Of a DNA stretch of 64,000 nucleotides, positions 6,001 to 59,013 are shown piece by piece (positions within the stretch are counted from its first letter, which is position 1; the number at the start of each line of letters is the position of its first letter). A model generated the notes under the pieces. The model had not been told where the DNA came from, ran no database searches, and was given only the letters and a program-made list of their open reading frames with translations. The translations under genes and the position numbers were made by a program. Source of the stretch: an uncultured bacterium (GTDB lineage Bacteria > Omnitrophota > Omnitrophia > Omnitrophales > Aquincolibacteriaceae); assembly GCA_964606385.1 (NCBI GenBank), contig CAZSFZ010000005.1, positions 40,650 to 104,649 on the forward strand. Reading direction: 5' to 3'.

Positions 6001-9000
6001 GCCGGTTGAGGGTAAATTCCAGCAATGGCGCAACGAATTCGACTGGAAGTTCAAACAAATGTTGCGGGGGACGCTGGACCTCGAGAAGCATGGTTGGGTC
6101 AATATCGCCATCATATCGGCGATCGCAGGCGCATTGCTTTTTATCGTCAGCTTGCTTCGCGACATTGCACGAAAAACAGTTTTGAAAAAAATAGGGCATG
6201 GAAAAATATATGACAATGATTTAAAAAGCCCGCAAAGTCAGCAGGGTTTTGACTGGGGATATCGCTTTTACGCCGCATTTATTTTTGCCGCGACCACGGG
6301 GATCATGGGGGTCTTTGCCTCGGTCAAGAATCTTGATGTTTTCTGGAGTCCGGCGTTTGTTTTCACGATCGCGGCTAATTTCTATCTCATTTATCACATC
6401 GTTAATATCTTCTTTCAGTATTTTGTCGGGAATCTCGGCGCCCGGCCGGTTTATCCGATGAAACCTTCCGGAGGAAGCCAGCCACTCCTTTCCGGAGAGA
6501 GTGATGAGCTTCAAGCCAAGGTTCTCGTGAGGCTGCTTCAAAAATTAGCGGCTGCTTCTCCAGACGCCCGTCCTCTTATTGGTGATCAAGTAGAAGCTTC
6601 CATTACACGTGTATTGAAGCAAAGGACGGGAGAATATCCGGCCACGGCCGATATCGTACCGTCCATTGTAGGTCAGTTAGCGGCTGCTCCCGACACGGAG
6701 GTTGCTGTCCGGGATTGGCTCGACAGCCTTCCCGCTGCTCGGTCAGAAACTAGAGCGGAGTCTCAGCCGAGATCCCAGATGCGGTTGACGGATGTGCAGG
6801 AAAAACAATTCCAGAAGGCAATGGATGGTGCGCAGGATAAATGGTGGTATAACTTTTTTCCAGATGGTGGTGAAAAGCGCAGAATTGATGCAATGCAAGC
6901 CTTAGCCGAGTTCAAAGACTCGAGAGCTATTCCCACATTAATTAAGATTTGGGAGAGCTCATTATCAGGTGGAAATGCTGATTCTTTCTTAGAGCGTGCT
7001 ATTCGAAACAGTGCGCAGCGCGCACTCAAGACATTTGAGTCGCATGAGTTTGTTCCCGAGCTTATTGATGCTTTAAATAATGCAACGGATTCTGGCATGC
7101 GTTATGTTTTTAGAATCTTTTCCACGCTTAAAGATCCGAGGACTTTCCCAGTCCTTCTCAATGCCTTAAAAGATGCTCGCCTCAGTTATCGGTTAAGTGC
7201 CGTTAGAGCTTTGACCGAGATGAGCGATGCCCAATTCGTTCCCGAGCTAATGACTGTTTTAAATGATGATAGCCCTGAGGTCTGCGTGCTTGCCGCTGGA
7301 GCCATTTTAAAATTTAACGATCCCCAAACCTTTCCGAAGTTAGTTGACGCTTTGGTCAGGGTTTTGGAAAGGTTGCCTCGTGGTGGTGAACATACAACGG
7401 CAGGTGATGATGCTATGAAACTCTTGGGTGAGTTAAAAGACCCTCGGGCAATTCCGGCATTGTCTCAGTTCGAAAGACGCCATGGACATGCTCAGTGGAC
7501 ATCATTGCGGGTTTGGTCCGATGCCTTAGAATCAATCAAAAAAGGCACTCAGGAACGTTCCGAACTCCGTTCCGAGGAAGATGAAGCTCGGGAAGATGCG
7601 GAACTTGAATTTCGCGAAGCCGCGGCACGAGGGAAGTGGAAAACCATGCCGCCGATGCCGCCGGTGGGGCAGATCCAGGCGTTACAAGAACTGCTTCGTC
7701 CGGACCGGGATGATCTCGGGGAAATGCAGGCCTGGATCGGACATCTCGTCCGGGTGCTTGAAGAGACGCCGCCTTCCTTAAAGCTTTTCCTTTTTGCTCG
7801 TGATTGGGACAGCCCCACGTCCAAAGAAGAGGGGATGACGGCGAAGGAGTTTATGCTTGCCGCAATGCGCAATGCCAAAACGGTCGACGGGCGAAGGGTT
7901 GATCTTTTGAAAGAATTTGGGGACCGTGTCGTGGTCTTCACCCGGAGCGGGTCGTTTGAAAAGCCTTATGATTACCAGGCCATTATGCGGTGGCTGAAGA
8001 CCGGGAAGCATACGCTGGAAGGTCGCATTAGCGAAGATATTGCGGATCCTGCTAAGCGTGCAGCTTTTGAGCATAAGTGGGGCGCTGATAAGGAGTGGGA
8101 TAAGTGGGAAGGGCATAATGCCCGGAAAGCCCTTGAACCGGTGCCTAGCAATGAGCCTGAGTTGGATGAACAAGGCCTTCCCAGAAAAGATGAAAAAGGC
8201 AATATCGTTTATAAACCTACATTGGATGAGAATGGTAATGTCGTGTATCCGCTTGAGCGCATTCCGCTGATCAACGGTGTGCTGGACAACAGGACTGGTG
8301 AGGAGATATCTCTCGATGCTGATCCGAAGAAATGGCCTCCCTTGGTTCAATCGCTACGAAATACGGAGCTCGGGAAATCCTCGGTAGAACACCTTCTCGT
8401 TTTTGATGCTGAGATCGGCATGACAGGGGAAGACGTGTTCTGGACGTTCGCAAAGATGAACGATCCGCGCAACAAACGTCACGGGATGTTCGAACCCCGC
8501 CAGATCGTCCGCAACGAAGCGGAAACAGTCCAAACTTTCAATGAGGCCACTGCCGGTGGTTCTCTCTGGTTCACGCATGGCGCCCTCAGCCGGTTCTTTA
8601 ACAGGATCCGCGCGTTCGGCAAGTTCGGGATCAAAGTAAACAAGTACTACGACGACATTATGGAGCCGACGGTCGATGACCCGTACGGTCCGTATATCGG
8701 GGCGTCGGTCAGAGCCAGCGATATGATCTTGCATCCCACGGCTTTCAAGCTCACTAAATTCTTTATTTTTATCGTTGTTCCCGTCGCGGTCACTTTATGC
8801 GTGAATGCGGTGATCGGATTGGGCGTCTTCCTGGCGGCATTCTCACTCCTGCCGAGGTTTTTTGCGAAGTGGCCGCACGTAAAAGGCTCGGGGACTTCCC
8901 GAGCGCTTTTGAGTCATGACGAATGGGAAGCGGTTTTTACGCCGGTAGCGCTGATGAACGACATTGTCATGGAGGATGACGCGAAGCCGAAGCCGATCAA

Positions 9001-12000
9001 CTGGCTTGAGCGTTTGTATCGCTGGATCGGAACTTTTGATGCCAACAGTATCCTTGCGAGGGCCCGTAACGCCCATATTTTCCGCCAGTCGAGTCGCGTG
9101 TTCAATAACGTGATCATTCGCGGGTTATTCGCGACCGCGATCTGGCTGGTCGTGATCCTTGTCGGGGGAGCTGAGACGTCGGTACCGGGTCTGGGTGGGG
9201 TTGCGCGGCCGTTGCTCGGGGAACTGTTGTATGCCGGCACGATGATCGCGCTATTGCATACCAAGATCACCGGACCGCTGATGAACTATTTAAAGAAGCT
9301 CGGATGGGGTTGGGGCTCCGTTGTCGCGGTCATCATGGGCGCGGCTATTTGGAAATTCCAATTGGACGCTCTCTTCTTTATGGTCGCGTTGTCAGGGCTA
9401 GTCGCATTGGTCGCTATCTTTCTGCCCCACGGGTGGGGTACGAACCTCTATTTCCACATAGGGGAAAGGGAGCTTTCCGGAACTGTAAGACTGAAAGGCG
9501 ACATTAAGCAAACCCGTCTGAAAACGGCGCTTTCCGCTCCTCTCCAGATGGGCGACATCGTTAATCAGGGCGGGGAGGAGACGGTTGCTTCGACCGGTTT
9601 TCTTCTGAATTACCTGGATTATTCGGTTCGTTACATTCGAAAGGCTTTTTCGAGCGTTTTTGCCATGCTTAAGACCAAGCGGGTCACGGCACTTGCACAG
9701 CCCAAGATCCCGAAAGAAACCATTTTTGATGCTATTCGAGCACTTCGCGTGACCGTGACCATTGGACTAGTCCTCCTTTTTGGAATGTGGGGGGCGGGGT
9801 GGATGCCGGATGCCGGGCTCGGAGCTTTACAGGTAGGGTTCTGGGGGCAGTTGGGGATCGCTTTGTTTTATTCCCTCGTTTTCCTCGGAAATTATGTGCA
9901 TATTTTTCAAAAATGGATCGCTACTAAAATTAATTTGGCCAAGGCAAAGGAAAACCTTGAAAAGGAAAAAATCAAAGAAAAAGAAATGGAAGTGATTGCG
10001 GCGAGAAATGCAACCGCTAATGGGACCACCCTTGAAGAGGAAAAGATAAAATTACGGAAAGCAGGGATGGGAGCGAATCTAAGCAGGTCCGCGGATTTTC
10101 AGGCTGAGATTGATGATGCGAAGCATGCTTCACGTCTGAACAAGAAGGATATTTTAAGGACGCTCTTTCATCCGATCGCTTTGCTGGCCGCAGTATACTT
10201 GGCACCGTATTATGGCCCGCTGCTCGATCAGCACCTCTTGGGACGTGCGCTCCCGATCCATCTGGCTTTGATCGGAGGGCCTTTCATCGCCTTCTTTCTC
10301 GGATTCGAATTCCACAAAACGAAGTTGTTGAAATATTTTGCCGAGAAATCCAGGCCTATCGCGACGCTCATCGGATCAATAACATGGGCAGGTACTTTCT
10401 GGTACTACGTGGCCATGGAACGTTTGCCGTGGCTTGGTGCGCTCTACCATAATGCGTTAGGTTGGCTCGGGATTATGTCCACGACGAGTTCCGCCGAAGG
10501 GTTTGTGATCAGCGGAACCGGACTTGGCGCGATGCTGGGTACAAATCCCGTCTTTGTCCTTCTTCATATTTTCGTGTTTGTGGGGGTCTCTCTCCTGGTG
10601 GTTATCGGTGCCGGTCTGGGAATCTACCATTATGTAGAAAGCCTTTTAACGAAAAACATCAAAAACACAGAAATTGGGGTTTTGAAAAAAGCTCTTAAAG
10701 ATTGGAAGAAGTACAATGAAAAAATGGCCGAACGAAAAGCTGCCTCGCAGGCTCAGTCACCTGACGCGCGGTCTGAGATGAGGAATGCGGTGTTGACGGA
10801 TCTCACCAAGATCATGGCGCGGCAGGATGCGCTGCCGGAAAAAGCGGATCTCATCATGGTGTTCGGGAGCGGGGATCTGCGCGTGGCGGCGGAGGTGGCG
10901 GAGATGTACAAGGCCTATGCCGCGAAGGGTGTGTCGCTGAAGGTCCTGGTTGCCGGAAAAGGCGACAAGACCGAGAAGCCTGAAGCCGAACTTTATAAGA
11001 ATGAGATGGTGGCCCGCGGTGTCCCGGCTGAAGCGGTGCTGATTGAACCGACCTCCATGAATATGAAGGAAAACGCTGAGTTTACGCAGAAGGTCCTGGT
11101 TGTTGAAAAGGAAAAATCGGGATTCGATCCTCAGGATATTATTTTTGTTCACGCACCGTTCCATGTTTTAAGAGGCGCGGATGCCGCAGTCAAGGTTTTT
11201 GGAACAAAGATCAAGGCCATCCACGCGGCGTATGTACCGACTGCGACTGAGTTACAGGACGCCAAAGTCATCGCCACGCTTGAAAAACAGGCGCCCAGGG
11301 TTGCCGAGATGCCGTCGATCGCCGAATCCGCAGCCATTAAGGCAAAACTCGACGAATATAAGGCGCTTACGGCACCCTCAGCTGTGCCACCCGCCCGCTC
11401 CGAGTTGCGTACGCCGGAGCAGGAGGCGTTGGTCCAGCCGGTGCGTATGATGACGGATGCGATGCTCGAAATGGTCACGACGGAAACTCTCGCAAATAAA
11501 TTCCGGGAGTTCATGCGCGCGGACATCCTTTTGACGCTCGCTCCCGAAAACAAGATGCTTTTCTACTCCGCGGGACCGGCGACCGGAAAAGGCGCCGTGC
11601 TTGGGGCCTCCTTCCTCGCCGAAGATGGGGAAATCGCGGCTCCGTATCAGGACCTTGTTCAAAAATTTGTCCTGGGCCACCAACGGGATTTCAGGCCCGG
11701 CGATAAGGAGAAAGACGGCCGGCATTATCATTTCCGGTCTCAGAGAGGCTATTGGGCTTCGAAATATGCCGCGCTTAAAGATGCGGGGTATTTCGAGATC
11801 CGAATGATCAACAACCAGGAGCAGATGCTGCCGATCAGGACTTTCACCGACTATGATGTTCCAGTCGAGCACGTTCAGAATGCCGGCCTGATCAATCCGC
11901 AGGATGTTGTGGTCAGCTACGAGATCCCGGAAGGACAGCGCATGAGGACGGAGCTAGTCGTTGAACGTCCTGGAGAAGGGCGTGTGACGCTACGCGATAT

Positions 12001-15000
12001 TATTATTCCCGCGGACAAGCAGGGGACATTCTTGCCGGAAGACGAAGTTGTCAATGTGTCGGGCTCTACGGTCACCGTGAACCGGCGCATCATAGGACTC
12101 AATGAGATGCTTGCCGCCAACCGTTTTACGGTTTTTGAAGGCGGTTACGATTGGTTCCGCTGGATCCAGGAAAATCATCCCGGCGCCTTGACCCTTTTCC
12201 TCTCACCGTTCGAGGAAGCGGATTTTGAAAAACGCTCCAAGAATATGGCGTGGATCCTCAGCGCGAAAGATTCGGCAGGAAGAAAACTGTTCCAGACCCC
12301 TCTCGATGTGTACCTGGCTTTTGAAGCAATTGACATGTTGGTGGAAGGAAAAGATCTAGGAGCTTTTGGGAAGATTGCGCCGAGAGGGGAGCTTGACATC
12401 ACCGGTCAGACCGATCTTCAGGAAACTGTGGTGAGGATTGTCCAACATTTGCGGTCGGGCGCTTACCCGGTCCAAGAGGCCAATGAGAGCGTCATTTTGG
12501 GTTCCCGTTTTATACAGGACCTCAATAATGTCATGGGCAATTTCGGCGCGCCTCAGATCGCTGCAAAGGATTACATGCTGGCTCGTGCGCTTGCCAATGA
12601 ATTGCAGCATCGGACCATGAGCCGCAAGGGAGCTGAACCGCAGCCTTTCTATGTATCCAATAAGCAGTCTAATGCTTATGAAAGGATTTTAGAGGGGATC
12701 TTCCAGATCATGACGCGCCACAACTATGGCGCGGGGAATGTTCTTCCGAACGCGCGGATTGCCGATGAGCAGCAGCGCAAAGAGGCGTTGGCGAAACTTG
12801 GCGACAAATTTGCGCGCCGGCTCTTTGAGCACACCATTGCGGGTATCCGCCGTTCCGAACTCCGCGAAGATGAAACGCCGGTCACCGTTTCGCGGTCTGA
12901 AGTGCGATCTGCGGAGGAGGTCATCCGGCATGTCAAGGAAATGCCCGCTGCAGATTTTGATGCTTTGAAGGTGCCGGAATTGGTTGAGTTGACCCGCGCG
13001 ATGATCCGTACGGGAGCTTTTAAACATTTCCCGGGTCTCGAAGAAAAAATGATGGTTTTTTCGGCCGGACCCGGAACGGGGAAAGGTACGCTTCTCAAAG
13101 TTACTTTTAAAGTTGAAGCGGCGGATCTTGAGAAAGATCCGACTGCCAGGGCGCCTTTCGAAGACTTAGTTGATCGGTTTGTGCTTTACCATTCTCGTGC
13201 TGCGCGCATTGATGTAGAGACTGGTTTGTCGGAAAAAGACGGGGAAGATTATCACTTCCGGAACAACACGGATTATCAGTTCGAAGTTCAACCGGAAAAT
13301 GTGAAGAAAGGTACCTATTTAAGAAGTTTGGCCGCCCAAGGACTGCCGCTGGAGATACAAGAGATTAACCGTCAGGCCCAAGGCATGGCGGTCAATGATT
13401 TTCCGGATGGAGAACCCGGGGTAGTCGTTGCAGATGTCGGCGGAACGGGTCTGTCTCAGTTAAAGACCGGAGATCTCGTGATTGACTTTGACCGAAGGCA
13501 GGGGTTGCTTCGAGTCATGCACCAGGAGAACGAAAGAACGGAAGTCTTGGGGATCTCTATCCCGAGGGACAAAAAAGGTCTTTTTCTCCCTGGAGATCGT
13601 ATCGAGGGTGTGCACGGGACAACGGTGACCGTGAAACGTTCGATCCGTGGCATTACGGGACTTTTTTCAGGTGACCGGCTTGGATTTCTGGAGGGGGGCT
13701 ACGAGTGGTTCCGGTACCTGAAAGATCAGTACCCGAAGATTTGGACATGCTTTCTTGCGCCATTGTCCCCGGCAGAACTTCAACAGCGAATTTATAATGA
13801 AGCCGCTATCGATTCAGCTTTTAAAGATCCCGAGGCGAACGCGTTGGCGCACCATATCATGTTTGCCCGCATGGCTGAATTGAACCGCGAAATAGATCTT
13901 CGCCTTCAGACAGAGATGGAAATGATCCGGGCCGAAGTGGCGAAAGGAGAAAATGGAAAATATGGCTCTATGGATCCTGTGCTTCTTAATAATTCGAAAC
14001 TTATTAAGTCCCCTCGCTTTAAGCGGGAACTCGATTCTCTGCTGCAAAAATACAACATGCCGCCTGTTAGCGTGGAGAGGCTGAAACAGGCCGAGGCGCT
14101 TGCATATGAGATCCAGCGCAGGCTTATCACTCGTGACCCCATACAACCCTTTTTGGATGGGGCGGACAAACCGACGGATCGTCTTAATCGTGTTCTGACG
14201 GGGATCTTCCAAAATTTCACGAGTGAGCAGTATAGCCAGACTGTTGTCAACCGATTCGGATATACAAGGGAGCAAAGAAAGGCAAATCTTGCGCAACTAT
14301 CAGATGAATTCATGGACGGCTATTTGAGGCATGTGCTGGCCGCTGTGCGTCGCTCCGAAGTGCGTGTCCAAACGGTTTCGGACCTTCTGGATGTGGTGGG
14401 TGAGGATGACCAGGCGACGGGGCAGCAGGTGGAGCGGAACGTGGCCCATGAAACGGGTGTCCGTCATCGCGCTGCGGTGCTTTTCGCCTTCAACCGGAAA
14501 GGGGAACTGCTGATCCAGAAGCGGGGTATGGAGAAGGACGTTTTCCCGGATACGTGGACATTCTCGGCAAGCGGTCATGTGGATGCCGGAATGAGCTACG
14601 CCAAAACGATCTTGAAAGAAGCTCCCGAGGAAATGGGTATGTCGCTCGATCCGCAGAGGCTGAATGTCATCGGGGCTACGGGGATGCCGTGGTCGTCCCT
14701 GAAGCAGTACGCTTATACTTTTTCGACTGATGACGTTGCTAAAACCCAGGAGGCGATCGAAAAGGCCCATGAAAGATTAGTCCGTGACGGAGTGCTGCCC
14801 GCCCGGCTTGAATTTGATAATCTTCTTTGGAGAGTTTGGCCGGATCCCGCCAAGGGGAAGGTGACGGTATTCTTGTATAAGTTGAGCTCGAAGCTGGACA
14901 CGGCTTTGGATGCGGCCCGCGACAAAGTAAGTCCCGTGCTGAGAGAAATGGTCGGGGAGTATGAACAGCGGACCATCATGAACCGGGATAACCGGACCCA

Positions 15001-17764
15001 TTACGCGTACCGCTTGAACGAACAGGAAGAGGAATTCCTCGCAAAACGTGCCGAGGAGATCCGCCGGAAGGCCGGGGCCGAGCCGTCCGCCGAGGTGACC
15101 GACCTGAAGTTCGCTTCCCTTGAAGATATCCGGCAGCAGTTCCGTCAGCATCCGACGCTCTTTGTCGAGGACATGCTGATCCTCTTCGACCCGCAGTTGA
15201 ATCGGGACCTGGAGGTCACGGAAGACCTTCTTCGCGAAAGCAAGGTCCAGGAAAAGATTCCGGCTGTGGCGGGTCTGAGCCAGAACGTGCGGGAGGTCAA
15301 GCAGCGGCTCCAGAGGTCGCTTGAGGATCCGAGAGAGGATTTCGACGCGGTCGTGCTGGTCGTGAACCCGGCGTTTACGGGTGTGGTGCGCGAGGCCTTG
15401 GAGGGATTGAAGGGGATCGCGTATAACCCCGCGCTCAGGATCGCGGTCGTGGAAGAAGAGCCCGCGGGGAGCATTACGGATTCATTGGTCGGTGCCGACA
15501 TAGCATTGCGTCAAATGTTCGGAGAAAACTACGCGTCGCAAGTGGCCGATAAGAAGGTCGCGATCATCACGATGTCCGGTTTCGGAGCGCGGATGCCGAC
15601 CGATTTCGGTAAAGGGCTCTTGTCCTTGCCGGGCGGACGGACATACCTGGAACAAATACTGCGACAGCGTTTCTTCTTCCTGGACAAGAACTTCCGCGGG
15701 TTGATGGTCCTTTCGATCGATGGCATCAAGATCCCTCAGTTCATGCCTGAGATGGGCAAGGCCGGTATCCAGGTCATCGGATTGCCGATGGCCCGGACGG
15801 ATGAGAACGTCGGAGAACTGGGGCTTTTCGTCGTGAGCGATCCGTTCCGTCCCGGTGCGCAACCCATCCAATATGCTTTTGAAAAGTTACCGCGCTCTCA
15901 ACGGGATGATTATGCCGCCCGGCAGTTGATCCCGGGCCGGTACGTCAATGTATCGCAGGCGGATTATCCTCTTTCCTGGGAAGCTTATACATGGCTGCTG
16001 GAACAGGTGCGGGCGATGCAGCAAACGCTTGAAACGAAATATCGGGCCGAAGGGAAGAGCTATCGCGACGATAATGTGGCTTACAACTGGGCCGAGCATT
16101 TGTTCGAGCTGGCGTTTTTGCCGGAAGACCTGGTTCCGGACTATCTGGAGCGCTCGGTGGAGCGTTCGGGTCCCATGGACAAGGATGTTTTTGATCAGTT
16201 CCTGCGCATCGCGCGCGAGGCGAGGCAGCGTTTCGGTATGGAATTCGTCAACGTGGGGACCGATTCCGTTTACCATAACACGAACCGTCCCGATCAATAC
16301 CGCGATTTTCTGATCTCGCTCCTGTCGAACGCGGCCGTGCGGGACATGTTCGATCTTGTGGAGCGCCAAGGAAAGCTGGTCGATCTGCAGGCGGAGCAGG
16401 TCAGTCCGTCCGTGTTCAGCTCTCCGATCGAGAGCGGCGTGCTGGTCTCCAAAAGTATCATTGACCTCGGCGTGCAGATGAAAAAAGGAAGCGTTGTTTT
16501 CAATAGCGCGCTGGTGGCGGGTACCAAGATCGACACGCAGGGAGCCGTCATCAACAGCGTGGGGCGCTTCATCGTGCCGCGCGGGGCGATCGTGGACTCC
16601 GTGATCGCTCCTGCGGAAGGTCTGGAAGTGCTGCCGGATAGCTACACGCGGGGGTATTTTGTCAAAAGGCCGGACGGAAAGATCGAGCAGATCCTCGTGT
16701 CGCTCCCGGTGAAGATCCTGGTTACAAGCGGGCAGGCGGCTGATCTAAAGGTGACGGATGTGAAGAGCGCCTTGGATGGTAAACGCTTGAGCCGTTTCGA
16801 GATCTTCCCTCGAGCGGAGCATTTGGCGAATAGGATCCCGTCCTTGGCTGAAGAATCCCCGGAAAAATATTCATTGGATGAGATCCGCAAAGATCTCGAT
16901 CGTGACATGGCTTGGCAGTTCCGTCGGCAGTTGGTCCAGGCCGCCCAAGATCAATCGATGACCGCCTTCCGCCTTGCGGAGAACATGAAAGCTTCTCTTG
17001 CTCAAAAAGGCATGGTCGAAATGAAGCGTTCGGAATTGCGGGAAACGGAAGCGGAAGTCCTCCCGGCAGAAACCGGCGATATTCAGGCAAAAACGGAAGC
17101 TGCCCTCGTGGAATCGCGCGATGATGAGATCGCCGAGGCGATCCAGGCGGCCGTGAAGGAATCTGCGGCGATGCGTCAGGAGATCAGGCTGCAGACCGAA
17201 GTTTTGAGTCAGGATGCGATGCGTGCCGAGGTGCGGATGACCGCGAAAATCATTGAGATGATGAAAGACCTGGGCTTGCAGTCTTACGGCGATCAGACGC
17301 GCTTTGTGGTGCCTTTTGACCAGGATCTCATCCAGAGTCTGATCAAGAATAACCCGAAGGCCAAGATCGTGATCGTGACGAAGTCGTTGGAGGAGAAAGC
17401 GACGGCCGAAGAGCGTACGGCGGGATTCACGGAAGCCACGGGTGTTGTGTTCGATTACGTAGTGAGCAGGAACTTCCAGCTCGATGTCCGTAATATTGCC
17501 GCCGACCAGGCGAAGGAACTGGGTCTCGAGGTCGTCTCCGGTCAACGGAACCGCAGCGTTCTCTTGGTCCGTAAGATCGCGGATGCCGCCATGACGGCCG
17601 AGAAGATCAACCGGGCTTATGCTCTGGTAGGCCAGATGTTCGGTATTGTCGCGATCGTGGGCTTCCAACCCGATGTGTCCGTCGATTTCGCGACCGATCA
17701 CTCGATCGCCGACATCCTGCAATCCGAGATCAGCGCCCAGCAGGCGATCGGCAAGTCCGCATAA
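20..17764 (+). CDS. Giant multidomain membrane-associated protein (5914 aa); the 5' end may extend beyond the window, since the frame is open from nt 2. Modules: N-terminal charged/coiled-coil region; 3 TM helices (~6098-6430); HEAT/PBS-lyase-like repeats (~6790-7500); 12+ TM helix block (~8740-10640); DUF218/YdcF-like (~10850-11230); two tandem ~500-aa modules (~11396-14365); Nudix-like (~14430-14890); sugar-nucleotidyltransferase-like plus left-handed beta-helix (~15550-16620)
   Basis: A single stop-free frame of 17.7 kb in the standard code, which cannot arise by chance at this GC content. Motifs read directly from the sequence: DPRAIPAL/DSRAIPTL HEAT-like repeats; LIMVFGSGDLRV...IFVHAPFHVLRG (DUF218-like); GHVDAGMSYAKTILKEAPEEMGM (degenerate Nudix box); ITMSGFGARMPTDFGKGLLSLPGG (NTP-transferase-like G-x-G-x-R) followed by hexapeptide-repeat segment VVFNSALVAGTKIDTQGAVINSVGRFIVPRGAIVDSV; many hydrophobic 20-23 aa segments. 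RSE[LV]R motifs at 7556, 11396, 12851, 12893, 14351 and 17027. Confidence 0.85.
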   Translation: MNIEEFRQALRTPGGIAGLKARLEIAGMSDSKTDALRKELEALRQMRRGIHSKQFTSVWAKLGYDTGAFRANVGMNMRLFGGDYRARLKVNEYEQEKKADQIEEREQALLFEMERNLTSLISTAEQKDLARQRLQVLMNGWEENRRSTALGLIGGDAGFDDERKLVEAYHALNAVDQAHMWNWTDFNLFLVRGNINPSILGVAAQAAAGTAEITPVPAQSKAKVEVLTKEDIGLDAFQSDRKVIGETDKRAEFQPNARDLMTSLGLGVSLSAAEVQKSEALFKEAEEGLKAARSGRDAAARRVQEQQKKVDSLARELESLKVSEKAKAEKKDGFLNWLLGLFGVGEQFSGTLKSALIAKDLEKAEQELVRLKADLAKAEQDRQEWEVKAREADGQRRASLSAQGLEELIAKILGANVDSHNLASTLGKEGLQLRYLNALIQAAKFDGAERILEKLLNGQKLQAFWEQDVGASFLADPAATDALQEIRLGAVKSEDPSKDVSFLRYVGFLDFVVARHVDWALLSPEFRAKAKINTPADANRWFLELFGTLVQARDLLQQHYRNLPDSAFPAGTDKVAMAKLKLGIPLDINAPAEFGMIWGLAYDAKLRGIDLGRGEAIFNEEITEEKDFDGDKKPDVTVTRKYEEILRESFPDYSLNKRWRAVQDRRINSDERRYGMEEAWEFRAIVHGKFAPDGSVTLNQIDQDQTVEQARTLAVQAALRQSGVRKEHWGKVAYAVGMMKTLMDTNIPAPMEGFEALARLRQIAADVAAVQSKKSGGAVLTPVEEKILADAAEKEKVAMRILVQDKFVQSSGAFAARESLTLLLKNVGTLSPSDKTAYYDLIETSMVDAKDGIELGRAMGLLNTLLHGSGFESSEERAAWIKMDLSKRIEKMKQLLGTAFNLNKVISYPIASDETGELLGRLLAIAGDLDKGTDAWTEFFDKDGNLAGTEEKNQVKIDRARRLSTKLFHTILTPEGQAAILKYAADVDEMSIHESKNKRGKEGDVAAIARDLALNDRLQTLDDVKEELSIRTQIFQEAPKLGEDFRLHATELNFYSDMFREFRDLYTQMTVPQLFDLIKAAMSSRGELLQTTIPSLEQRVKPELLTTDDYKAFLEKARYLSGQTMDFSAAFQLVTDFFNDQKRRVPEKRAAFEDAASWIAEQEKIKTLLQAGYMLTHFDEAGDPLPMEGSDISSWIDNIRRGFFGEDQIAAVMDNVQVLKYDGDIEILNNVAKGKFLRAYAGRVLLAGAMSEADVSKVLDAIFSKIDSRGRYDFKAIEAEIQARIQNPEARQKVLEAMNKFPVFKYWEKMGLARDAVNLKRSPEWMRLWFDFVAVLEEASLVEANKMVDTAQLSFAVRRSLKGTVTVDSMKSFLMGPEDPWYKKPFSWAQNKRLFRQMRFVDEYHDFAFMDMGPAINDYQRLVGTWNMVFKQLPGTAEVDFGTEIWNAMDKDPVFSQWKISDREALQRQAIAHFQMIDASFADKYYAALVGKRTQLTEAENQEIWGKVRAAQEAVRAQMKQTVIDSLISRAKGEPDRAAFRKESLTLSAELLGLRGAAKDAWKSRRDFYDENRAFPEGKTEKEIASGLQTMYTELLAKIPAGDRGFYPKELDKYTLEALVKEMIVWGYTMNDVFYRFVQLNYEVEGAYRKALKIPDSTRLTRVQSGEVSAYTEELFKSVGFLISGAYPGEAEALKRVGRPLDGIITTELARFQDRLVLRDQLKDLFTKKFGNTTQIHESKTEVDRKAYLWATKLQERVKTVKDVEVWVTQAQALMTTAPQLSVSEALALMDTWIDLGIADAPSTEKVWDDAQMKSEWDTYRTGLVAYAQGPGYEKAWRNFWLYDPATQVMRDFNSPEFQALVNARIAQRKISPVQLKALIDQVMKTDALIRKIMRQQDEKSISDKTRLIEGIRSISIVDLLFYYDAISNPGEKIDFIDIAAETSGRRDEMLPQMQAWQKMVQDAISSAKKFELEEGMLPEKFDLTEFTTPKAPAPVEGKFQQWRNEFDWKFKQMLRGTLDLEKHGWVNIAIISAIAGALLFIVSLLRDIARKTVLKKIGHGKIYDNDLKSPQSQQGFDWGYRFYAAFIFAATTGIMGVFASVKNLDVFWSPAFVFTIAANFYLIYHIVNIFFQYFVGNLGARPVYPMKPSGGSQPLLSGESDELQAKVLVRLLQKLAAASPDARPLIGDQVEASITRVLKQRTGEYPATADIVPSIVGQLAAAPDTEVAVRDWLDSLPAARSETRAESQPRSQMRLTDVQEKQFQKAMDGAQDKWWYNFFPDGGEKRRIDAMQALAEFKDSRAIPTLIKIWESSLSGGNADSFLERAIRNSAQRALKTFESHEFVPELIDALNNATDSGMRYVFRIFSTLKDPRTFPVLLNALKDARLSYRLSAVRALTEMSDAQFVPELMTVLNDDSPEVCVLAAGAILKFNDPQTFPKLVDALVRVLERLPRGGEHTTAGDDAMKLLGELKDPRAIPALSQFERRHGHAQWTSLRVWSDALESIKKGTQERSELRSEEDEAREDAELEFREAAARGKWKTMPPMPPVGQIQALQELLRPDRDDLGEMQAWIGHLVRVLEETPPSLKLFLFARDWDSPTSKEEGMTAKEFMLAAMRNAKTVDGRRVDLLKEFGDRVVVFTRSGSFEKPYDYQAIMRWLKTGKHTLEGRISEDIADPAKRAAFEHKWGADKEWDKWEGHNARKALEPVPSNEPELDEQGLPRKDEKGNIVYKPTLDENGNVVYPLERIPLINGVLDNRTGEEISLDADPKKWPPLVQSLRNTELGKSSVEHLLVFDAEIGMTGEDVFWTFAKMNDPRNKRHGMFEPRQIVRNEAETVQTFNEATAGGSLWFTHGALSRFFNRIRAFGKFGIKVNKYYDDIMEPTVDDPYGPYIGASVRASDMILHPTAFKLTKFFIFIVVPVAVTLCVNAVIGLGVFLAAFSLLPRFFAKWPHVKGSGTSRALLSHDEWEAVFTPVALMNDIVMEDDAKPKPINWLERLYRWIGTFDANSILARARNAHIFRQSSRVFNNVIIRGLFATAIWLVVILVGGAETSVPGLGGVARPLLGELLYAGTMIALLHTKITGPLMNYLKKLGWGWGSVVAVIMGAAIWKFQLDALFFMVALSGLVALVAIFLPHGWGTNLYFHIGERELSGTVRLKGDIKQTRLKTALSAPLQMGDIVNQGGEETVASTGFLLNYLDYSVRYIRKAFSSVFAMLKTKRVTALAQPKIPKETIFDAIRALRVTVTIGLVLLFGMWGAGWMPDAGLGALQVGFWGQLGIALFYSLVFLGNYVHIFQKWIATKINLAKAKENLEKEKIKEKEMEVIAARNATANGTTLEEEKIKLRKAGMGANLSRSADFQAEIDDAKHASRLNKKDILRTLFHPIALLAAVYLAPYYGPLLDQHLLGRALPIHLALIGGPFIAFFLGFEFHKTKLLKYFAEKSRPIATLIGSITWAGTFWYYVAMERLPWLGALYHNALGWLGIMSTTSSAEGFVISGTGLGAMLGTNPVFVLLHIFVFVGVSLLVVIGAGLGIYHYVESLLTKNIKNTEIGVLKKALKDWKKYNEKMAERKAASQAQSPDARSEMRNAVLTDLTKIMARQDALPEKADLIMVFGSGDLRVAAEVAEMYKAYAAKGVSLKVLVAGKGDKTEKPEAELYKNEMVARGVPAEAVLIEPTSMNMKENAEFTQKVLVVEKEKSGFDPQDIIFVHAPFHVLRGADAAVKVFGTKIKAIHAAYVPTATELQDAKVIATLEKQAPRVAEMPSIAESAAIKAKLDEYKALTAPSAVPPARSELRTPEQEALVQPVRMMTDAMLEMVTTETLANKFREFMRADILLTLAPENKMLFYSAGPATGKGAVLGASFLAEDGEIAAPYQDLVQKFVLGHQRDFRPGDKEKDGRHYHFRSQRGYWASKYAALKDAGYFEIRMINNQEQMLPIRTFTDYDVPVEHVQNAGLINPQDVVVSYEIPEGQRMRTELVVERPGEGRVTLRDIIIPADKQGTFLPEDEVVNVSGSTVTVNRRIIGLNEMLAANRFTVFEGGYDWFRWIQENHPGALTLFLSPFEEADFEKRSKNMAWILSAKDSAGRKLFQTPLDVYLAFEAIDMLVEGKDLGAFGKIAPRGELDITGQTDLQETVVRIVQHLRSGAYPVQEANESVILGSRFIQDLNNVMGNFGAPQIAAKDYMLARALANELQHRTMSRKGAEPQPFYVSNKQSNAYERILEGIFQIMTRHNYGAGNVLPNARIADEQQRKEALAKLGDKFARRLFEHTIAGIRRSELREDETPVTVSRSEVRSAEEVIRHVKEMPAADFDALKVPELVELTRAMIRTGAFKHFPGLEEKMMVFSAGPGTGKGTLLKVTFKVEAADLEKDPTARAPFEDLVDRFVLYHSRAARIDVETGLSEKDGEDYHFRNNTDYQFEVQPENVKKGTYLRSLAAQGLPLEIQEINRQAQGMAVNDFPDGEPGVVVADVGGTGLSQLKTGDLVIDFDRRQGLLRVMHQENERTEVLGISIPRDKKGLFLPGDRIEGVHGTTVTVKRSIRGITGLFSGDRLGFLEGGYEWFRYLKDQYPKIWTCFLAPLSPAELQQRIYNEAAIDSAFKDPEANALAHHIMFARMAELNREIDLRLQTEMEMIRAEVAKGENGKYGSMDPVLLNNSKLIKSPRFKRELDSLLQKYNMPPVSVERLKQAEALAYEIQRRLITRDPIQPFLDGADKPTDRLNRVLTGIFQNFTSEQYSQTVVNRFGYTREQRKANLAQLSDEFMDGYLRHVLAAVRRSEVRVQTVSDLLDVVGEDDQATGQQVERNVAHETGVRHRAAVLFAFNRKGELLIQKRGMEKDVFPDTWTFSASGHVDAGMSYAKTILKEAPEEMGMSLDPQRLNVIGATGMPWSSLKQYAYTFSTDDVAKTQEAIEKAHERLVRDGVLPARLEFDNLLWRVWPDPAKGKVTVFLYKLSSKLDTALDAARDKVSPVLREMVGEYEQRTIMNRDNRTHYAYRLNEQEEEFLAKRAEEIRRKAGAEPSAEVTDLKFASLEDIRQQFRQHPTLFVEDMLILFDPQLNRDLEVTEDLLRESKVQEKIPAVAGLSQNVREVKQRLQRSLEDPREDFDAVVLVVNPAFTGVVREALEGLKGIAYNPALRIAVVEEEPAGSITDSLVGADIALRQMFGENYASQVADKKVAIITMSGFGARMPTDFGKGLLSLPGGRTYLEQILRQRFFFLDKNFRGLMVLSIDGIKIPQFMPEMGKAGIQVIGLPMARTDENVGELGLFVVSDPFRPGAQPIQYAFEKLPRSQRDDYAARQLIPGRYVNVSQADYPLSWEAYTWLLEQVRAMQQTLETKYRAEGKSYRDDNVAYNWAEHLFELAFLPEDLVPDYLERSVERSGPMDKDVFDQFLRIAREARQRFGMEFVNVGTDSVYHNTNRPDQYRDFLISLLSNAAVRDMFDLVERQGKLVDLQAEQVSPSVFSSPIESGVLVSKSIIDLGVQMKKGSVVFNSALVAGTKIDTQGAVINSVGRFIVPRGAIVDSVIAPAEGLEVLPDSYTRGYFVKRPDGKIEQILVSLPVKILVTSGQAADLKVTDVKSALDGKRLSRFEIFPRAEHLANRIPSLAEESPEKYSLDEIRKDLDRDMAWQFRRQLVQAAQDQSMTAFRLAENMKASLAQKGMVEMKRSELRETEAEVLPAETGDIQAKTEAALVESRDDEIAEAIQAAVKESAAMRQEIRLQTEVLSQDAMRAEVRMTAKIIEMMKDLGLQSYGDQTRFVVPFDQDLIQSLIKNNPKAKIVIVTKSLEEKATAEERTAGFTEATGVVFDYVVSRNFQLDVRNIAADQAKELGLEVVSGQRNRSVLLVRKIADAAMTAEKINRAYALVGQMFGIVAIVGFQPDVSVDFATDHSIADILQSEISAQQAIGKSA
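11396..14365 (+). repeat. Intragenic tandem duplication of a ~1.47-kb (~490 aa) module inside giant ORF 1 (copy A ~11396-12865, copy B ~12893-14365); copies are diverged at the DNA level but clearly homologous at the protein level
   Basis: Both copies share the ordered motifs M(L/V)F(Y/F)SAGPxTGKG, DLV(Q/D)(K/R)FVL(G/Y)H, (K/D)GxxYHFR, GxTVTV(N/K)R, (F/L)EGGY(D/E)WFR(W/Y), QPF...GIFQ, and both end in (I/V)RRSE(L/V)R. Confidence 0.7.
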
Positions 17765-17878: not shown

Positions 17879-19549
17879 ATGAAAACTCCCTTGAAGATCG
17901 CCATCGCGCAAATGAATCCGACCGTGGGGGACTATGAGTCCAATACGGCGCGGATCCTGCGGTGGATCGATCTTGCCGAGCGGCAGGGCGCGGATCTGAT
18001 CGTTTTTCCCGAAGCCGCGCTTTGCGGTTATCCCGTCTGGGACCTGGCCAATAAAAAGCAATTCCTCGCGGAAGGGATGAAGAGTCTTGGCCGTATCGCG
18101 GCTTCAACCAAGCGAAAAAAGATCGCGGCTGTTGTGGGCTTTATTGCTCCGTGCAAACTGCACGGCAAACGGACCACGGGGAACTCGCATAACGCCTTGG
18201 CCTGGGTCGAAAAGGGGAAGGTCCGGACGGTCTATCACAAACAGCTTCTGCCCACCTATGATGTCTTCCTCGAGGAGATCTTCTTCCGCCCCGGAACTGA
18301 TACCAAAGTCATTCCGTTCAAGGGCCATAAGATAGGCCTTACGGTCTGCGAGGATATCTGGGACGAGAAGTATGAGGTGAAGCCGCTCGCTGCTCTTGCG
18401 AAAAAGAAAGTAGATCTTGTGATCAATATTTCCGCCTCGCCCTATTACCGCGGTGTCGCCGCTTCTCGTGAGAAACTTTTGAAAGGCCATGTGCAGCGTT
18501 ACGGTTTCCCGATCCTTTATGTGAATCAGGTAGGGGGGCAGGATGATCTTCTCTTCGACGGGCAGAGCATGTTTGTGGGTGAAAACGGCAAGATCCTTTT
18601 CAGGGCTCCCGCGTTCAAAGAAGATCTCTTCTTTTTCGATCCGACCCAGATCCGACCCCGGAGGTCGGATGGGCCGTTTCGACCTCCGGGGTCGGATCCG
18701 GTTAGCGAGCTGTATCAAGGGCTTGTCATGGGAGTGCAGGATTATTTTCGCAAGAACGGTTTCAAGAAGGCCGTGATAGGGTTAAGCGGCGGCATTGATT
18801 CGGCGCTTGTGGCCGCGATCGCGGTGGATGCCTTGGGAAAAGAGGCTGTCAAGGGCGTGACGATGCCCGGGCCGTTCTCATCGGAGGGGAGCTGGAAGGA
18901 TTCGGCGGAGCTTGCGAAAGCGCTTGGGATCGAGTTTGAGGTGTGGCCGATTAAGGAAATGTACCGGACGTTTCTTAAACAACCGCCTCGGGGAACGGGG
19001 AACGGGGAACGCAAACTTACATTAGCAATGGAAAATCTCCAGGCACGTCTCCGCGGGATGGAGCTTATGTATATTTCCAATGATGAAAACCGGCTTGTTC
19101 TGACGACCGGGAATAAGTCCGAGCTCGCGATGGGATACTGCACGCTGTACGGCGATATGGCGGGCGGCCTGGCCGTGATCGGGGATGTGTATAAGACCGA
19201 GGTCTACCGCTTGGCGCGATACAGGAATTCCATTCGCAAAGCAATCCCGGAATCCACGCTGACCAAGGCGCCTTCCGCAGAACTCCGGCCGAACCAAAAG
19301 GACCAGGATTCGCTGCCCTCGTATGAGGTGCTTGATGAGATCCTCGGGCTTTATATCGAAAAGAACCTGAGCCGCGACGAGATTGTCCGTAAGGTTCGCA
19401 AGAGGATCCCTGAGGCGGTCGTGGCCGATGTGGTTCGCAAGGTCGATCATAATGAGTACAAACGCCGCCAGACGCCGCCCATCCTGCGTGTGACCGAAAA
19501 GGCGTGGTTTGGCCGCCGCATGCCGATCACGAACCGATTTGCCGGATAG
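17879..19549 (+). CDS. nadE: Glutamine-dependent NAD+ synthetase (N-terminal nitrilase/CN-hydrolase domain plus C-terminal NAD synthetase domain)
   Basis: KIAIAQMNPTVGDYESN...LIVFPEAALCGYP (CN-hydrolase) and GLSGGIDSALVAAIA (SGGxDS PP-loop) ...GNKSELAMGYCTLYGD. The start is taken at the internal ATG 17879 (MKTPLKIAIAQ) rather than the ORF-track start 17783, which overlaps the upstream repeat element. Confidence 0.9.
   Translation: MKTPLKIAIAQMNPTVGDYESNTARILRWIDLAERQGADLIVFPEAALCGYPVWDLANKKQFLAEGMKSLGRIAASTKRKKIAAVVGFIAPCKLHGKRTTGNSHNALAWVEKGKVRTVYHKQLLPTYDVFLEEIFFRPGTDTKVIPFKGHKIGLTVCEDIWDEKYEVKPLAALAKKKVDLVINISASPYYRGVAASREKLLKGHVQRYGFPILYVNQVGGQDDLLFDGQSMFVGENGKILFRAPAFKEDLFFFDPTQIRPRRSDGPFRPPGSDPVSELYQGLVMGVQDYFRKNGFKKAVIGLSGGIDSALVAAIAVDALGKEAVKGVTMPGPFSSEGSWKDSAELAKALGIEFEVWPIKEMYRTFLKQPPRGTGNGERKLTLAMENLQARLRGMELMYISNDENRLVLTTGNKSELAMGYCTLYGDMAGGLAVIGDVYKTEVYRLARYRNSIRKAIPESTLTKAPSAELRPNQKDQDSLPSYEVLDEILGLYIEKNLSRDEIVRKVRKRIPEAVVADVVRKVDHNEYKRRQTPPILRVTEKAWFGRRMPITNRFAG
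18649..18698. repeat. Perfect 19-bp inverted repeat (GATCCGACCCCGGAGGTCG / CGACCTCCGGGGTCGGATC) with a 12-nt loop, lying in-frame inside the nadE inter-domain linker; preceded by a direct repeat of GATCCGACCC
   Basis: Arms 18649-18667 and 18680-18698 are exact reverse complements. The element translates as RPRRSDGPFRPPGSDP without disrupting the frame. Confidence 0.8.
18989..19011 (+). repeat. Three tandem CGGGGAACG heptamer units inside the nadE coding sequence (encoding GTGNGE); the same unit family as the intergenic inverted-repeat elements
   Basis: cggggaacggggaacggggaacg, read directly from the sequence. Confidence 0.6.
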
Positions 19550-19583: not shown

Positions 19584-20063
19584 ATGAACAGCCTACAAAA
19601 AACACCGGTCAAAACAAAGGCCGGGATTTTTATGCTTGAGTTCAGCCCGAAGGGGCTTTATGCGGTCCGTTTTCCGTCTAAGATGCCTGATTCCACCCCA
19701 CCTGCGAGGTGGGGTGGGTTCGGGAAGAAGCGATTGAAGCTCGATTTGACGGGCTACACACCATTCCAACGCAGGGTGTACGCGGCGCTTCGAAAAGTCC
19801 CTGCGGGAAAGACCATTACCTATGGGGAACTCGCCAAGCGGGCGGGATATCCGGGGGCAGCCCGCGCGGTCGGGAGCGCGATGCGCAAGAACCGGCTTCC
19901 GATCGTGATCCCATGTCACCGGGTCATTCAAGGAGACGGAAGCTTGGGAGCCTATTCGGCGGGAGTGAAGTGGAAAAGGTTTTTGCTCGAGTGTGAGAAA
20001 GTATTGGCGTGTCAGAGTGTCAACGTATCAAAGTGTTATAACGATAGGGCCATGACACGCTGA
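19584..20063 (+). CDS. ogt: Methylated-DNA--protein-cysteine S-methyltransferase (Ogt/MGMT)
   Basis: The active-site motif PCHRVI and a helix-turn-helix DNA-binding region (TYGELAKRAGYPGAARAVGSAMRKN) are present. Start is uncertain: ATG 19584 or ATG 19632. The ORF-track start 19509 would overlap nadE. Confidence 0.8.
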   Translation: MNSLQKTPVKTKAGIFMLEFSPKGLYAVRFPSKMPDSTPPARWGGFGKKRLKLDLTGYTPFQRRVYAALRKVPAGKTITYGELAKRAGYPGAARAVGSAMRKNRLPIVIPCHRVIQGDGSLGAYSAGVKWKRFLLECEKVLACQSVNVSKCYNDRAMTR

Positions 20064-27616: not shown

Positions 27617-28429
27617 GTGTTACCACAAGCCATATTCCATAGATCGTTGAACAGGTATCTTGGGACGGTTTTTACTCTCCTGATCGGGGCGGGCTTTCTC
27701 TCGGGTTGCGCATCGTCATCCGCCGTCCGTCCTGCTTCCTATGTGCCGCCGCGTTCGACGTCCGCGATCACGACCATGCTTCCGGCGCCTGGCGGTGTTC
27801 CGCGCAATATTTATCATGAGGTCGGCCCGTCGGAGACTTTGTGGCGTATTTCGACGATCTACAGCGTGGATATGGCGACGATCATGCGGGTGAACAACCT
27901 CAAGGATCCGACCCAGATCAAGAACGGCATGAAGCTTCTGATCCCCAACACGCGGGGGCCCCGGCCCAATATTCCTCTTTATCCTACGACGCGCTGGACC
28001 CATATCGTGATCCATCATACGGTCACCGACCAGGGAAGCGCTTATACGATCAACGGGCTTCATCAGCAGCGCGGCTGGGAGAACGGCATGGGGTATCATT
28101 TCCTGATCGATAACGGAACCCGCGGCAAAGCCCTCGGGCAGATCGAAGTGGGGCCCCGATGGATCAAGCAAATGGACGGCGCCCACACGAAGGCGGGGGA
28201 CTATAACCAGAAAGGTATCGGTATCGCCGTTGTGGGAGATTACAGTCAGTCCGGATTGCCGGACAAGATGTTTGATAATCTTGTTTTTCTCACCGTCACG
28301 CTTCAAAAATTTTACAATATCCCTGATCAGAATGTGGTAGGTCATCGGAACGTCCCCGGCGCCGCGACGGAATGCCCCGGGAAATTCTTTCCTTGGAGCG
28401 AATTTAAACGCCGTCTTGCCCAGTACTGA
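27617..28429 (+). CDS. N-acetylmuramoyl-L-alanine amidase (amidase_2/AmpD-PGRP type) with a LysM domain and a lipoprotein signal; GTG start
   Basis: Lipobox LSGC; LysM YHEVGPSETLWRISTIYSVDMATIMRVNNL; amidase_2 WTHIVIHHT...GYHFLIDNG...AHT...GIGIAVVGDY...CPG. Confidence 0.85.
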   Translation: MLPQAIFHRSLNRYLGTVFTLLIGAGFLSGCASSSAVRPASYVPPRSTSAITTMLPAPGGVPRNIYHEVGPSETLWRISTIYSVDMATIMRVNNLKDPTQIKNGMKLLIPNTRGPRPNIPLYPTTRWTHIVIHHTVTDQGSAYTINGLHQQRGWENGMGYHFLIDNGTRGKALGQIEVGPRWIKQMDGAHTKAGDYNQKGIGIAVVGDYSQSGLPDKMFDNLVFLTVTLQKFYNIPDQNVVGHRNVPGAATECPGKFFPWSEFKRRLAQY

Positions 28430-28658: not shown

Positions 28659-28691
28659 GGCAGTAGCAGGATAAACCGGAATCATTCAAAA

Positions 28692-28727
28692 GCCCATGAT
28701 CGCAATAGCGGTCATGGGCTTTTTTTT
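28692..28727 (+). terminator. Rho-independent terminator (12-bp stem GCCCATGATCGC/GCGGTCATGGGC, AATA loop, T8 tail)
   Basis: Hairpin plus U-run read directly. The ORF-track ORF starting at 28696 merely translates this hairpin. Confidence 0.8.
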
Positions 28728-58290: not shown

Positions 58291-59013
58291 ATGAAGAACG
58301 GTGCTGAAGCTCTGACCGATATCTGCGTCGCGGGCATCACGCCCTTTACGACGATAGATTTCCCCGGCCGTCTGGCCGGGGTTTTCTATCTCCAGGGGTG
58401 TCCGTGGCGGTGCCGTTACTGCTATAACGCCGAGTTCTGGCCATTACCTCCCGAAGGACAGCGCGTTCCCGCCGAGAAGATCCTCGAGTTCCTGGATTCC
58501 CGTAAAAATCATCTTGATGGCATTGTCTTTTCAGGTGGAGATCCTACGGTCCATGAGCGTCTTCCTGTCTGGATGAAAACCGTGAAAGACATGGGGTTTG
58601 AAATCGGTCTTCACACCGGCGGGATGTTTCCGGACCGTCTTGTCAACATCCTGCCGCTTTGCGATTGGGTCGGCCTCGATATCAAAGCTCCTTTCGATCG
58701 CTATGAAAAAGTGACGCAAATCGCTGGAAGCGGGGAGAAGGCCCATCGGAGCGCGGAACTTGTCCTTGCGAGCGGCGTATCCTATGAATTCCGCACGACT
58801 TTTCATCCCGCGTTGCTTTCTGAAGAAGATGTGCTCGCGATGGCCCAAAAGCTTGCCGGAATGGGATGTAAGCGTTATGCTCTTCAAATGTTCCGACCCG
58901 ATCATTGTGCTGATAAAGAGCTTCGCGAAAGTTCTGTCCCTGCGGCCGGCATTTCCGCGGCGCTTCGCCAGAACCTCAAAACTTATTTCTCGGAATTTCT
59001 TATTAGGGAATAA
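58291..59013 (+). CDS. nrdG: Anaerobic ribonucleotide reductase activating protein (radical SAM)
   Basis: GCPWRCRYCYN (CxxxCxxC radical-SAM cluster), directly downstream of nrdD. Confidence 0.88.
   Translation: MKNGAEALTDICVAGITPFTTIDFPGRLAGVFYLQGCPWRCRYCYNAEFWPLPPEGQRVPAEKILEFLDSRKNHLDGIVFSGGDPTVHERLPVWMKTVKDMGFEIGLHTGGMFPDRLVNILPLCDWVGLDIKAPFDRYEKVTQIAGSGEKAHRSAELVLASGVSYEFRTTFHPALLSEEDVLAMAQKLAGMGCKRYALQMFRPDHCADKELRESSVPAAGISAALRQNLKTYFSEFLIRE

Follow-up and report, generated by a model that had tools for sequence, protein, structure and literature searches.

Background

How does a perfect 19-bp palindrome come to lie, in frame, inside the gene of a conserved enzyme? The question is raised by nadE, which encodes the glutamine-dependent NAD+ synthetase, in a stretch of 64,000 nucleotides (64 kb, hereafter the window) of contig CAZSFZ010000005.1, from an uncultured bacterium of the phylum Omnitrophota (assembly GCA_964606385.1). 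A sequence-only reading of the window had taken the palindrome for a recent in-frame insertion of a mobile or repeat element analogous to Rickettsia palindromic elements (RPEs) or, alternatively, for a regulatory RNA hairpin pausing translation. We analysed the palindrome and its host gene, compared the nadE DNA of the window with that of ten orthologues (L021, L022 and L043-L050, i.e. 11 sequences with the window) and searched for further copies of the repeat. With slightly better than even confidence, we lean towards a third explanation: the palindrome would have arisen locally, by replication template switching in a protein linker free of constraint, and would probably be neutral.

A perfect palindrome in the inter-domain linker of NadE

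The anatomy given by the sequence-only reading was verified in full, i.e. an exact 19-bp inverted repeat around a 12-nt spacer, preceded by a direct duplication, the motif GATCCGACCC standing at 18638-18647 and again at 18649-18658 (features are collected in Table 1). Inside each arm lies a 15-nt mini-palindrome, CGACC-N5-GGTCG, and the sole difference between the two units is their flipped 5-nt centre (CCGGA vs TCCGG). The whole is an inverted doublet of palindromic units, CGACC-CCGGA-GGTCG / CGACC-TCCGG-GGTCG, with 12 nt between them. Such a length greatly exceeds what chance would give: at loops of up to 60 nt, the next perfect inverted repeat of the window reaches 12 bp, and the maximum over 30 Markov shuffles was 14 bp. 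When RNA folding was run in sliding 60-nt segments over the whole 64 kb, the palindrome was an extreme outlier at -48.5 kcal/mol (mean -13.9, standard deviation 4.7, runner-up -35.7).

Translation and Pfam limits agree with the earlier placement of the palindrome, in frame, between the nitrilase and synthetase domains. It codes for residues 258-274 (IRPRRSDGPFRPPGSDP; reading frame ...DPTQIRPRRSDGPFRPPGSDPVSE...), between CN_hydrolase (residues 6-250) and NAD_synthase (residues 280-531). A protein 100 % identical to the window NadE was retrieved (P0001); the closest other homologues are 85 %, 81 % and 79-80 % identical, and all close homologues, like all the orthologues, which carry PF00795 and PF02540, belong to Omnitrophota. 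The best PDB match is 5kha, the NadE of A. baumannii (E = 2e-130), and the alignment with it crosses a linker of about equal length with almost no identical residues, which suggests that the linker is exposed. Among 35 aligned homologues the linker is hypervariable in both length and sequence and that of the window is of ordinary length, so that at the protein level the segment is no obvious foreign insertion.

One half of the palindrome is native linker

Comparison at the DNA level revealed where the left arm comes from. The native linker of the relatives reads I-(R/Q)-P-R-R-(L/S)-D-P and is encoded by a small palindrome, ATCCAACCT-CGG-AGGTTGGAT, which is present once in L044, where its 9-bp stem encodes IQPRRLD (ATC CAA CCT CGG AGG TTG GAT CCG); the native unit of L043 is ATC CGA CCT CGG AGG TTG GAT CCG GTT. 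The left arm of the window, taken with the GAT CCG GTT found 3' of the right arm, agrees with the L043/L044 unit ATC C(G/A)A CCT CGG AGG TTG GAT at 18-19 of 21 positions and in the same loop/centre orientation; likewise, the left arm and the subsequent GATCCGGTT together correspond to the single-unit linker in these two relatives. The left arm is orthologous to the native linker coding sequence of the relatives. Half of the palindrome is thus native linker, and the other half consists of a spacer and a reverse-complement copy.

Relative to the single-unit orthologues L044 and L047, the window carries 27 extra nucleotides (9 codons), which appear in the MAFFT alignment with L044 as a gap of 27 columns. 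Excision of this surplus leaves IRPRRSDPVSE, similar to the IRPRRLDPVRE of P0013. Since GGTCGGAT stands both at 18663-18670 and at 18690-18697, the limits of the surplus may be shifted by as much as 8 nt. Alignment with orthologues, which the sequence-only reading had proposed as a check, therefore upheld an in-frame gain in a linker of variable length, but one of 9 codons and not of about 16 residues, and with a left half that is native and already palindrome-bearing in relatives. As to the age of the event, the perfect arms argue that it was recent, as had been suggested.

The sequence preceding the palindrome may have changed as well. In the region of the extra copy of GATCCGACCC, the orthologues read GATCCCGCGC (L044) and GATCATGACC (L022), and the clustered differences that create a third copy of this motif would fit a templated multi-base change.

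Hairpins recur and decay at the same site

A palindrome is present at the linker site of nadE in six of the 11 sequences, of which five have long hairpins, each with a stem of its own, and L044 has its single 9-bp unit; in the remaining five (L022, L045, L046, L047 and L048) the hairpin is absent or decayed. Besides the window, the long hairpins are those of L021, L043, L049 and L050. L021, the sister of the window (85 % identical protein), has 18-bp arms with one G-U pair around an 11-nt spacer, built on a different unit (CCACCCCACCT-GCG-AGGTG(G/T)GGTG). The arms of L043 (15 bp, one G-U pair) result from an inverted copy lying upstream of the native unit, and those of L049 (13 bp, one G-U pair) from a PRVC-type unit common to L048. 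L050 has a perfect 20-bp repeat, CCCTGTACACACCGGGTGTG-N11-CACACCCGGTGTGTACAGGG. Among the other relatives, L045 and L022 still show the architecture of L043 but no longer its pairing; L047 has a decayed single unit, and L046 has no hairpin. The L050 repeat (10736-10786, in metagenome-assembled genome GCA_022709525.1, 11-nt spacer PCTHRVCTEVPHPVCTG) has a stem unrelated to that of the window and nearly identical dimensions.

Folding ranks follow this distribution. No part of nadE folds more strongly than the linker in the window, L021, L049 and L050; in L043 the linker ranks second, and in five orthologues its fold does not stand out. The decayed linkers of L045 and L022 reach within-gene z-scores of only -1.3 and -0.6, a decay that speaks against the structure being under purifying selection.

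The symmetry of the mini-palindromes was assessed over 15 unit instances, with rows that are not independent and a register that was centred on the palindrome by the analyst: 80.8 % of cells were paired, compared with 64 % after shuffling and 19-48 % in slid controls, and cells changed on both sides numbered 25 against 10.8 expected, neither symmetry value being reached in any of 500 shuffles. Changes on both sides of a stem are the pattern that one-step template switching produces exactly (PMC8794818). When only the peptides were considered, the potential of 109 NadE linkers to encode palindromes was weakly enriched, 15 of them having at most one of 40 shuffles reaching the observed value, compared with about 4-5 expected by our own estimate in a test of low power. 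This result fits a sporadic, not universal, occurrence of palindromes.

Template switching as the probable origin

The series described above can be read as follows. The seed would be a short coding palindrome on the Pro-Arg codons CCN-CGG, as still seen in L044, long present in the NadE linker of this clade. Palindromes as short as this are hotspots for template switching, in which the polymerase would briefly copy the nascent or the complementary strand, leaving reverse-complement copies and hence identical arms. In the lineage of the window, one such event would have added the spacer together with the native 15-19-nt unit copied in inverse orientation, with a net gain of 9 codons (GPFRPPGSD) and a perfect 19-bp inverted repeat as its outcome. 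Selection would spare only the outcomes that stay in frame, the flexible linker tolerating the added residues. The mRNA hairpin (about -48 kcal/mol) would then be a by-product, and hairpins that nothing maintains would decay as in L045 and L022.

Template switching at quasi-palindromes would be expected to leave a seed palindrome with inverted copies made independently to its left or right, and arms that are perfect when young, near-perfect when older and finally decayed, which is the pattern seen here. This process is known to make perfect stems in a single event and to mimic compensatory substitution (PMC8794818, Monttinen & Loytynoja 2022; see also PMC8604942, with yeast coding examples, and PMC7202029). 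In the window, the new sequence is the exact reverse complement of the adjacent one at 19 of 19 positions, and at 21 of 22 when extended.

Several observations weigh against this explanation. Firstly, the spacer GGGCCGTTT (9-12 nt) has no identifiable local template, its sole candidate being the 7-mer GCCGTTT, complementary to 18583-18589, so that a simple four-point template-switch model leaves some of the inserted bases unexplained. Secondly, the neighbor-joining tree, in which the window groups with P0002 and then P0003, has the two-unit arrangement in three separate parts (P0003, P0012 and P0013), while L044 and L047 carry one unit; the doublet could therefore be ancestral and the single-unit forms deletions, the direction of change being read from 11 sequences and its polarity uncertain. 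Thirdly, three hairpins unrelated in sequence have nearly equal geometry (19+12+19, 18+11+18 and 20+11+20), and arms are perfect in two of the 11 lineages, both of which could reflect selection for a hairpin. Finally, the search of the source genome for other copies covered 64 kb.

A selected mRNA structure

Selection for a hairpin is the core of a rival explanation, unlikely in our view. The hairpin would have been selected as an mRNA structure at the boundary of the two domains, slowing ribosomes once the glutaminase domain (CN_hydrolase) has emerged and thereby aiding co-translational folding, or else stabilising or processing the mRNA, and it would be maintained by compensatory changes. 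Its rank as the strongest local fold of the 64 kb and its prominence within nadE in the window and in L021, L049, L050 and L043 agree with such a role, and the best support comes from the shared geometry, i.e. stems of differing sequence and similar dimensions at one position. Covariation of the units above both shuffled and slid controls could be counted in its favour as well, but homogenisation of the arms by template switching predicts it equally. Two strand-related observations also point this way. The sense strand folds better than the antisense by at least 3 kcal/mol in eight of 11 hairpins against a background of 40 %, a suggestive but weak asymmetry (nominal p ~0.03) of non-independent cases, confounded by G+T skew or strand composition and by shared ancestry. 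Moreover, the stems of L021, L043 and L049 each depart from perfect pairing only by one G-U pair, formed on the sense strand, but this count is biased because A-C mismatches end the predicted stem and go uncounted.

Against selection stand the absence or decay of the hairpin in five of the 11 sequences and the presence of strong hairpins in variable loops away from the domain boundary, namely three in L043 nadE and others in the MGMT-type gene and in an ArgRS insertion of L050. A known RNA family or a terminator was also considered and rejected: the only Rfam match at the palindrome, mir-1294, reached 24 bits, the gathering score being 90, and no terminator-like tail was seen.

The shared geometry may also be given a more specific meaning. 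Several Omnitrophota lineages (window, L021 and L050, more weakly L043 and L049) would have kept, or arrived at anew, a stem of about 18-20 bp with a loop of 11-12 nt in unrelated sequences, as a selected mRNA element lying exactly between glutaminase and synthetase and either pacing translation for the co-translational folding or assembly of a tunnel-coupled two-domain enzyme or serving as a binding or processing site. We regard this form of the idea as quite doubtful.

A mobile palindromic repeat

The idea put forward by the sequence-only reading, that of a mobile repeat inserted in frame, also seems rather improbable for this palindrome. The element would be a small palindromic repeat of the RPE type, a miniature inverted-repeat transposable element (MITE) or a doublet of repetitive extragenic palindromic (REP) units, i.e. 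a REPIN. Two mini-palindromic units inverted around a spacer do have the layout of a REPIN, and the 27-nt surplus lies between two copies of a direct repeat of 8 nt, GGTCGGAT. Dispersed copies, which the earlier reading had proposed to look for, were however not found. At up to three mismatches, the 19-mer occurs in the window at its two arm sites only (0.08 sites expected), and a degenerate unit pattern combined with blastn-short in 168 kb of Omnitrophota DNA (the window and the nine loci other than L050) detected the unit in nadE linkers only. Among genome contigs, the 19-mer gave 19 single matches in unrelated taxa, which is about the chance level; the source genome was not among these contigs. 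Neither 15-nt unit was found in viral contigs, and a viral origin was rejected on this ground. A 15-mer match at 27905-27919 of the window encodes the LysM peptide KDPTQIK and was set aside as a coincidence.

One family of dispersed repeats does share the unit. When metagenomes were scanned for contigs holding both 15-nt units, 20 soil contigs (L023-L042, e.g. L025 4767-4807 and L036 10803-10869) emerged with a REP-like family, in which units identical to the arms of the window form tandem palindromes (CGACCYCSGRGGT) with a 13-nt period and mixed orientation, folding into long hairpins between convergent open reading frames (ORFs), with A-rich and T-rich flanks that resemble bidirectional terminators. 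With 65 % G+C and a gene for an ADOP permease (773 bits), a protein typical of Acidobacteriota, these contigs probably come from an acidobacterium. In the Omnitrophota orthologues, on the other hand, the unit drifts in place, from CAACCTCGGAGGTTG to CGACCCCGGAGGTCG, and we therefore read its identity with the soil family as probably convergent. In view of this drift, and given its G+C content, its probable acidobacterial host and its intergenic tandem architecture, the soil family was rejected as a relative of the palindrome.

The other properties of mobile palindromes give a similar picture. An in-frame insertion that is absent from orthologues was found, though half of the palindrome is native. 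At 27 nt, the surplus is much too small for a MITE or an RPE, i.e. an element of about 100-150 bp with terminal inverted repeats and a target-site duplication, and its 8-nt direct repeat belongs to the palindrome itself. The inverted doublet of a REPIN is present, but within a gene and as a single copy in the sequence searched. Two further observations speak for mobility in these genomes, namely a palindromic element of about 70 nt in L043, found in frame in two genes and between genes, and the unit CCACCCCACCT-GCG-AGGTGGGGTGG, common to the MGMT-type genes of the window and L021 and to the L021 nadE linker; both are described below.

Artefact and frameshifting

An assembly or amplification artefact, e.g. 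a fold-back chimera in a metagenome-assembled genome, is very improbable. The window does come from a metagenome assembly, and its exact sequence is found in one assembly only (P0001, one contig), but the surplus is of exactly 9 codons, the conserved 556-residue enzyme is intact, and analogous hairpins occupy the same site in five independent assemblies (JGI, ENA, NCBI, Logan). Programmed -1 frameshifting, stimulated by the hairpin at an upstream C-UUU-UUC and yielding a stand-alone glutaminase domain that ends at the TAG of 18703-18705, has a negligible probability and was rejected: the U-rich run does end 8-11 nt upstream of the window hairpin and the -1 frame does pass the hairpin and stop just after it, but the heptamer is non-canonical and merely encodes a conserved LFFF motif, the hairpin-bearing orthologues have no slippery site in common (CTT TTT TAT TTT in L049, CTC TTT TTT CTA in L021), and their -1 open frames run for 1 to 50 codons without pattern.

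Comparison with known systems

Template switching, the explanation that we favour, has its closest counterpart in quasipalindrome-associated mutations (Ripley and Lovett models; PMC8794818). Common to both are the one-step reverse-complement copy of an adjacent sequence, perfect young arms, seemingly compensatory two-sided changes, multi-base clusters and recurrence at a pre-existing short inverted repeat. Known cases, however, come from rRNA and other RNA genes, E. coli reporters and yeast genes, whereas the present case concerns a bacterial enzyme, in whose inter-domain linker there appear to have been several independent events in one phylum, with spacer bases that have no identified template.

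With RPEs, the palindrome shares palindromic DNA that is translated in frame in a conserved housekeeping enzyme, at a site tolerating extra residues. RPEs measure about 100-150 bp and form dispersed many-copy families with a conserved peptide (PMC10969869). The surplus of the window differs from them in being short, single-copy and derived from native sequence.

REPINs, also known as bacterial interspersed mosaic elements (BIMEs), resemble the palindrome in that two short imperfect palindromic units, inverted around a spacer, fold as one longer hairpin. According to what Bertels and Rainey are said to have reported in 2011, these doublets are mobilised by RAYT transposases, are extragenic, measure about 100 nt and number tens to hundreds per genome; the palindrome of the window differs in its intragenic position and its copy number. 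As to domain-boundary structures, studies of HIV-1 by selective 2'-hydroxyl acylation analysed by primer extension (SHAPE) are said to have led to the proposal that mRNA structures at protein domain boundaries pace translation. The likeness lies in a very stable predicted hairpin exactly between two independently folding domains; the difference is that half of the orthologues have no such structure.

Other palindromic insertions and the nadE neighbourhood

The RPE analogy, which does not hold for the palindrome of the window, is apt for other insertions in L043. Besides its linker hairpin, L043 nadE bears three in-frame hairpin insertions in surface loops (10241-10312, 11099-11156 and 11571-11645), and all four of its variable-loop insertions are strong hairpins. 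One of the three is a palindromic element (about 70 nt, peptide MSFPHVVSGNPDSGSPIKAFGDDK) with more copies within the same 22 kb: an in-frame copy in miaA (15707-15777), absent from the L045 orthologue, and further sites, intergenic copies included (17165-17212 and 14568-14600). Its behaviour in nadE and miaA is truly RPE-like. A broader proposition, that all insertions in these genomes are hairpins, was put to an automated test over 8 gene families with mixed results, 2 of 15 segments having z < -2 and segment boundaries often halving hairpins; we therefore make no general claim of this kind.

A second in-frame hairpin of the window lies at 19693-19717 (STPPARWGG), with a perfect 11-bp stem and a 3-nt loop, CCACCCCACCT-GCG-AGGTGGGGTGG. 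It lies in the gene that directly follows nadE, of the MGMT type (PF01035), within the variable N-terminal region, and is the fourth strongest local fold of the window. The same unit occurs in the L021 MGMT-type gene (4796-4820) and twice in the L021 nadE linker (3767-3814), either as an ectopic copy over about 1 kb or as a small dispersed repeat. Other strong hairpins of the window are 58341-58400, TTTCCCCGGCCGTCTGGCCGGGGTTTTC (-35.7 kcal/mol), and 28688-28723, AAAAGCCCATGA-N12-TCATGGGCTTTTTTTT; the latter, 3' of a LysM-amidase ORF, resembles an ordinary intrinsic terminator.

Synteny is conserved in relatives and comprises a giant gene, nadE, the PF01035 gene, rsfS and argS. In the window, the giant ORF (5,914 residues, 20-17764, + strand) lies directly upstream of nadE and may be truncated, as it begins 19 nt from the left edge; its counterparts in relatives range from 2,549 to 11,388 residues (L021 10,233, L049 11,388 and L050 8,256). 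The gap between argS and miaA holds different small genes, i.e. a 23S_rRNA_IVP / bAvd-like four-helix-bundle protein in L046 (14417-14782) and a GIY-YIG nuclease in L043 (14605-14928), which suggests a hotspot for small-gene insertion.

Table 1. Features of nadE and of its linker palindrome in the window
Feature	Position	Strand	Remark
nadE, glutamine-dependent NAD+ synthetase, 556 residues	17879..19549	+	ATG at 17879; the mechanical ORF starts at TTG 17783
Extra direct copy of GATCCGACCC, codons D-P-T	18638..18647	+	alternative stem possible with 18689-18698
Full extended hairpin, 22-bp inverted repeat	18646..18701	+	one A-C mismatch; predicted RNA fold about -48 kcal/mol
Left arm GATCCGACCCCGGAGGTCG	18649..18667	+	native mini-palindrome CGACC-CCGGA-GGTCG at 18653-18667, encoding RPRRS
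Spacer / hairpin loop GATGGGCCGTTT, 12 nt	18668..18679	+	
Surplus of 27 nt / 9 codons (GPFRPPGSD) relative to single-unit orthologues	18671..18697	+	MAFFT and codon-level comparison
Right arm CGACCTCCGGGGTCGGATC	18680..18698	+	flipped unit CGACC-TCCGG-GGTCG, encoding RPPGS; exact reverse complement of the left arm

Conclusions

The palindrome of the window appears to work like a template-switch hairpin, its likeness to RPEs being confined to the fact that a palindrome is translated. We see in it a further instance of known processes, set in an unusual phylum and at a site where recurrence is unusually frequent, and no new kind of genetic system. If it did arise by template switching, the NadE linker would offer a natural series at one orthologous enzyme site, with the birth of hairpins seen in the perfect arms of the window and L050, their ageing in the single G-U pairs of L021, L043 and L049, and their death in L045 and L022. 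Such a series would show that protein linkers can be lengthened, and that an appearance of compensatory evolution can arise, without selection, and it would call for caution when RNA structures inside genes are called from covariation. Independently of this origin, uncultivated Omnitrophota carry RPE-like dispersed palindromes that are translated in frame in housekeeping enzymes, as in nadE and miaA of L043.

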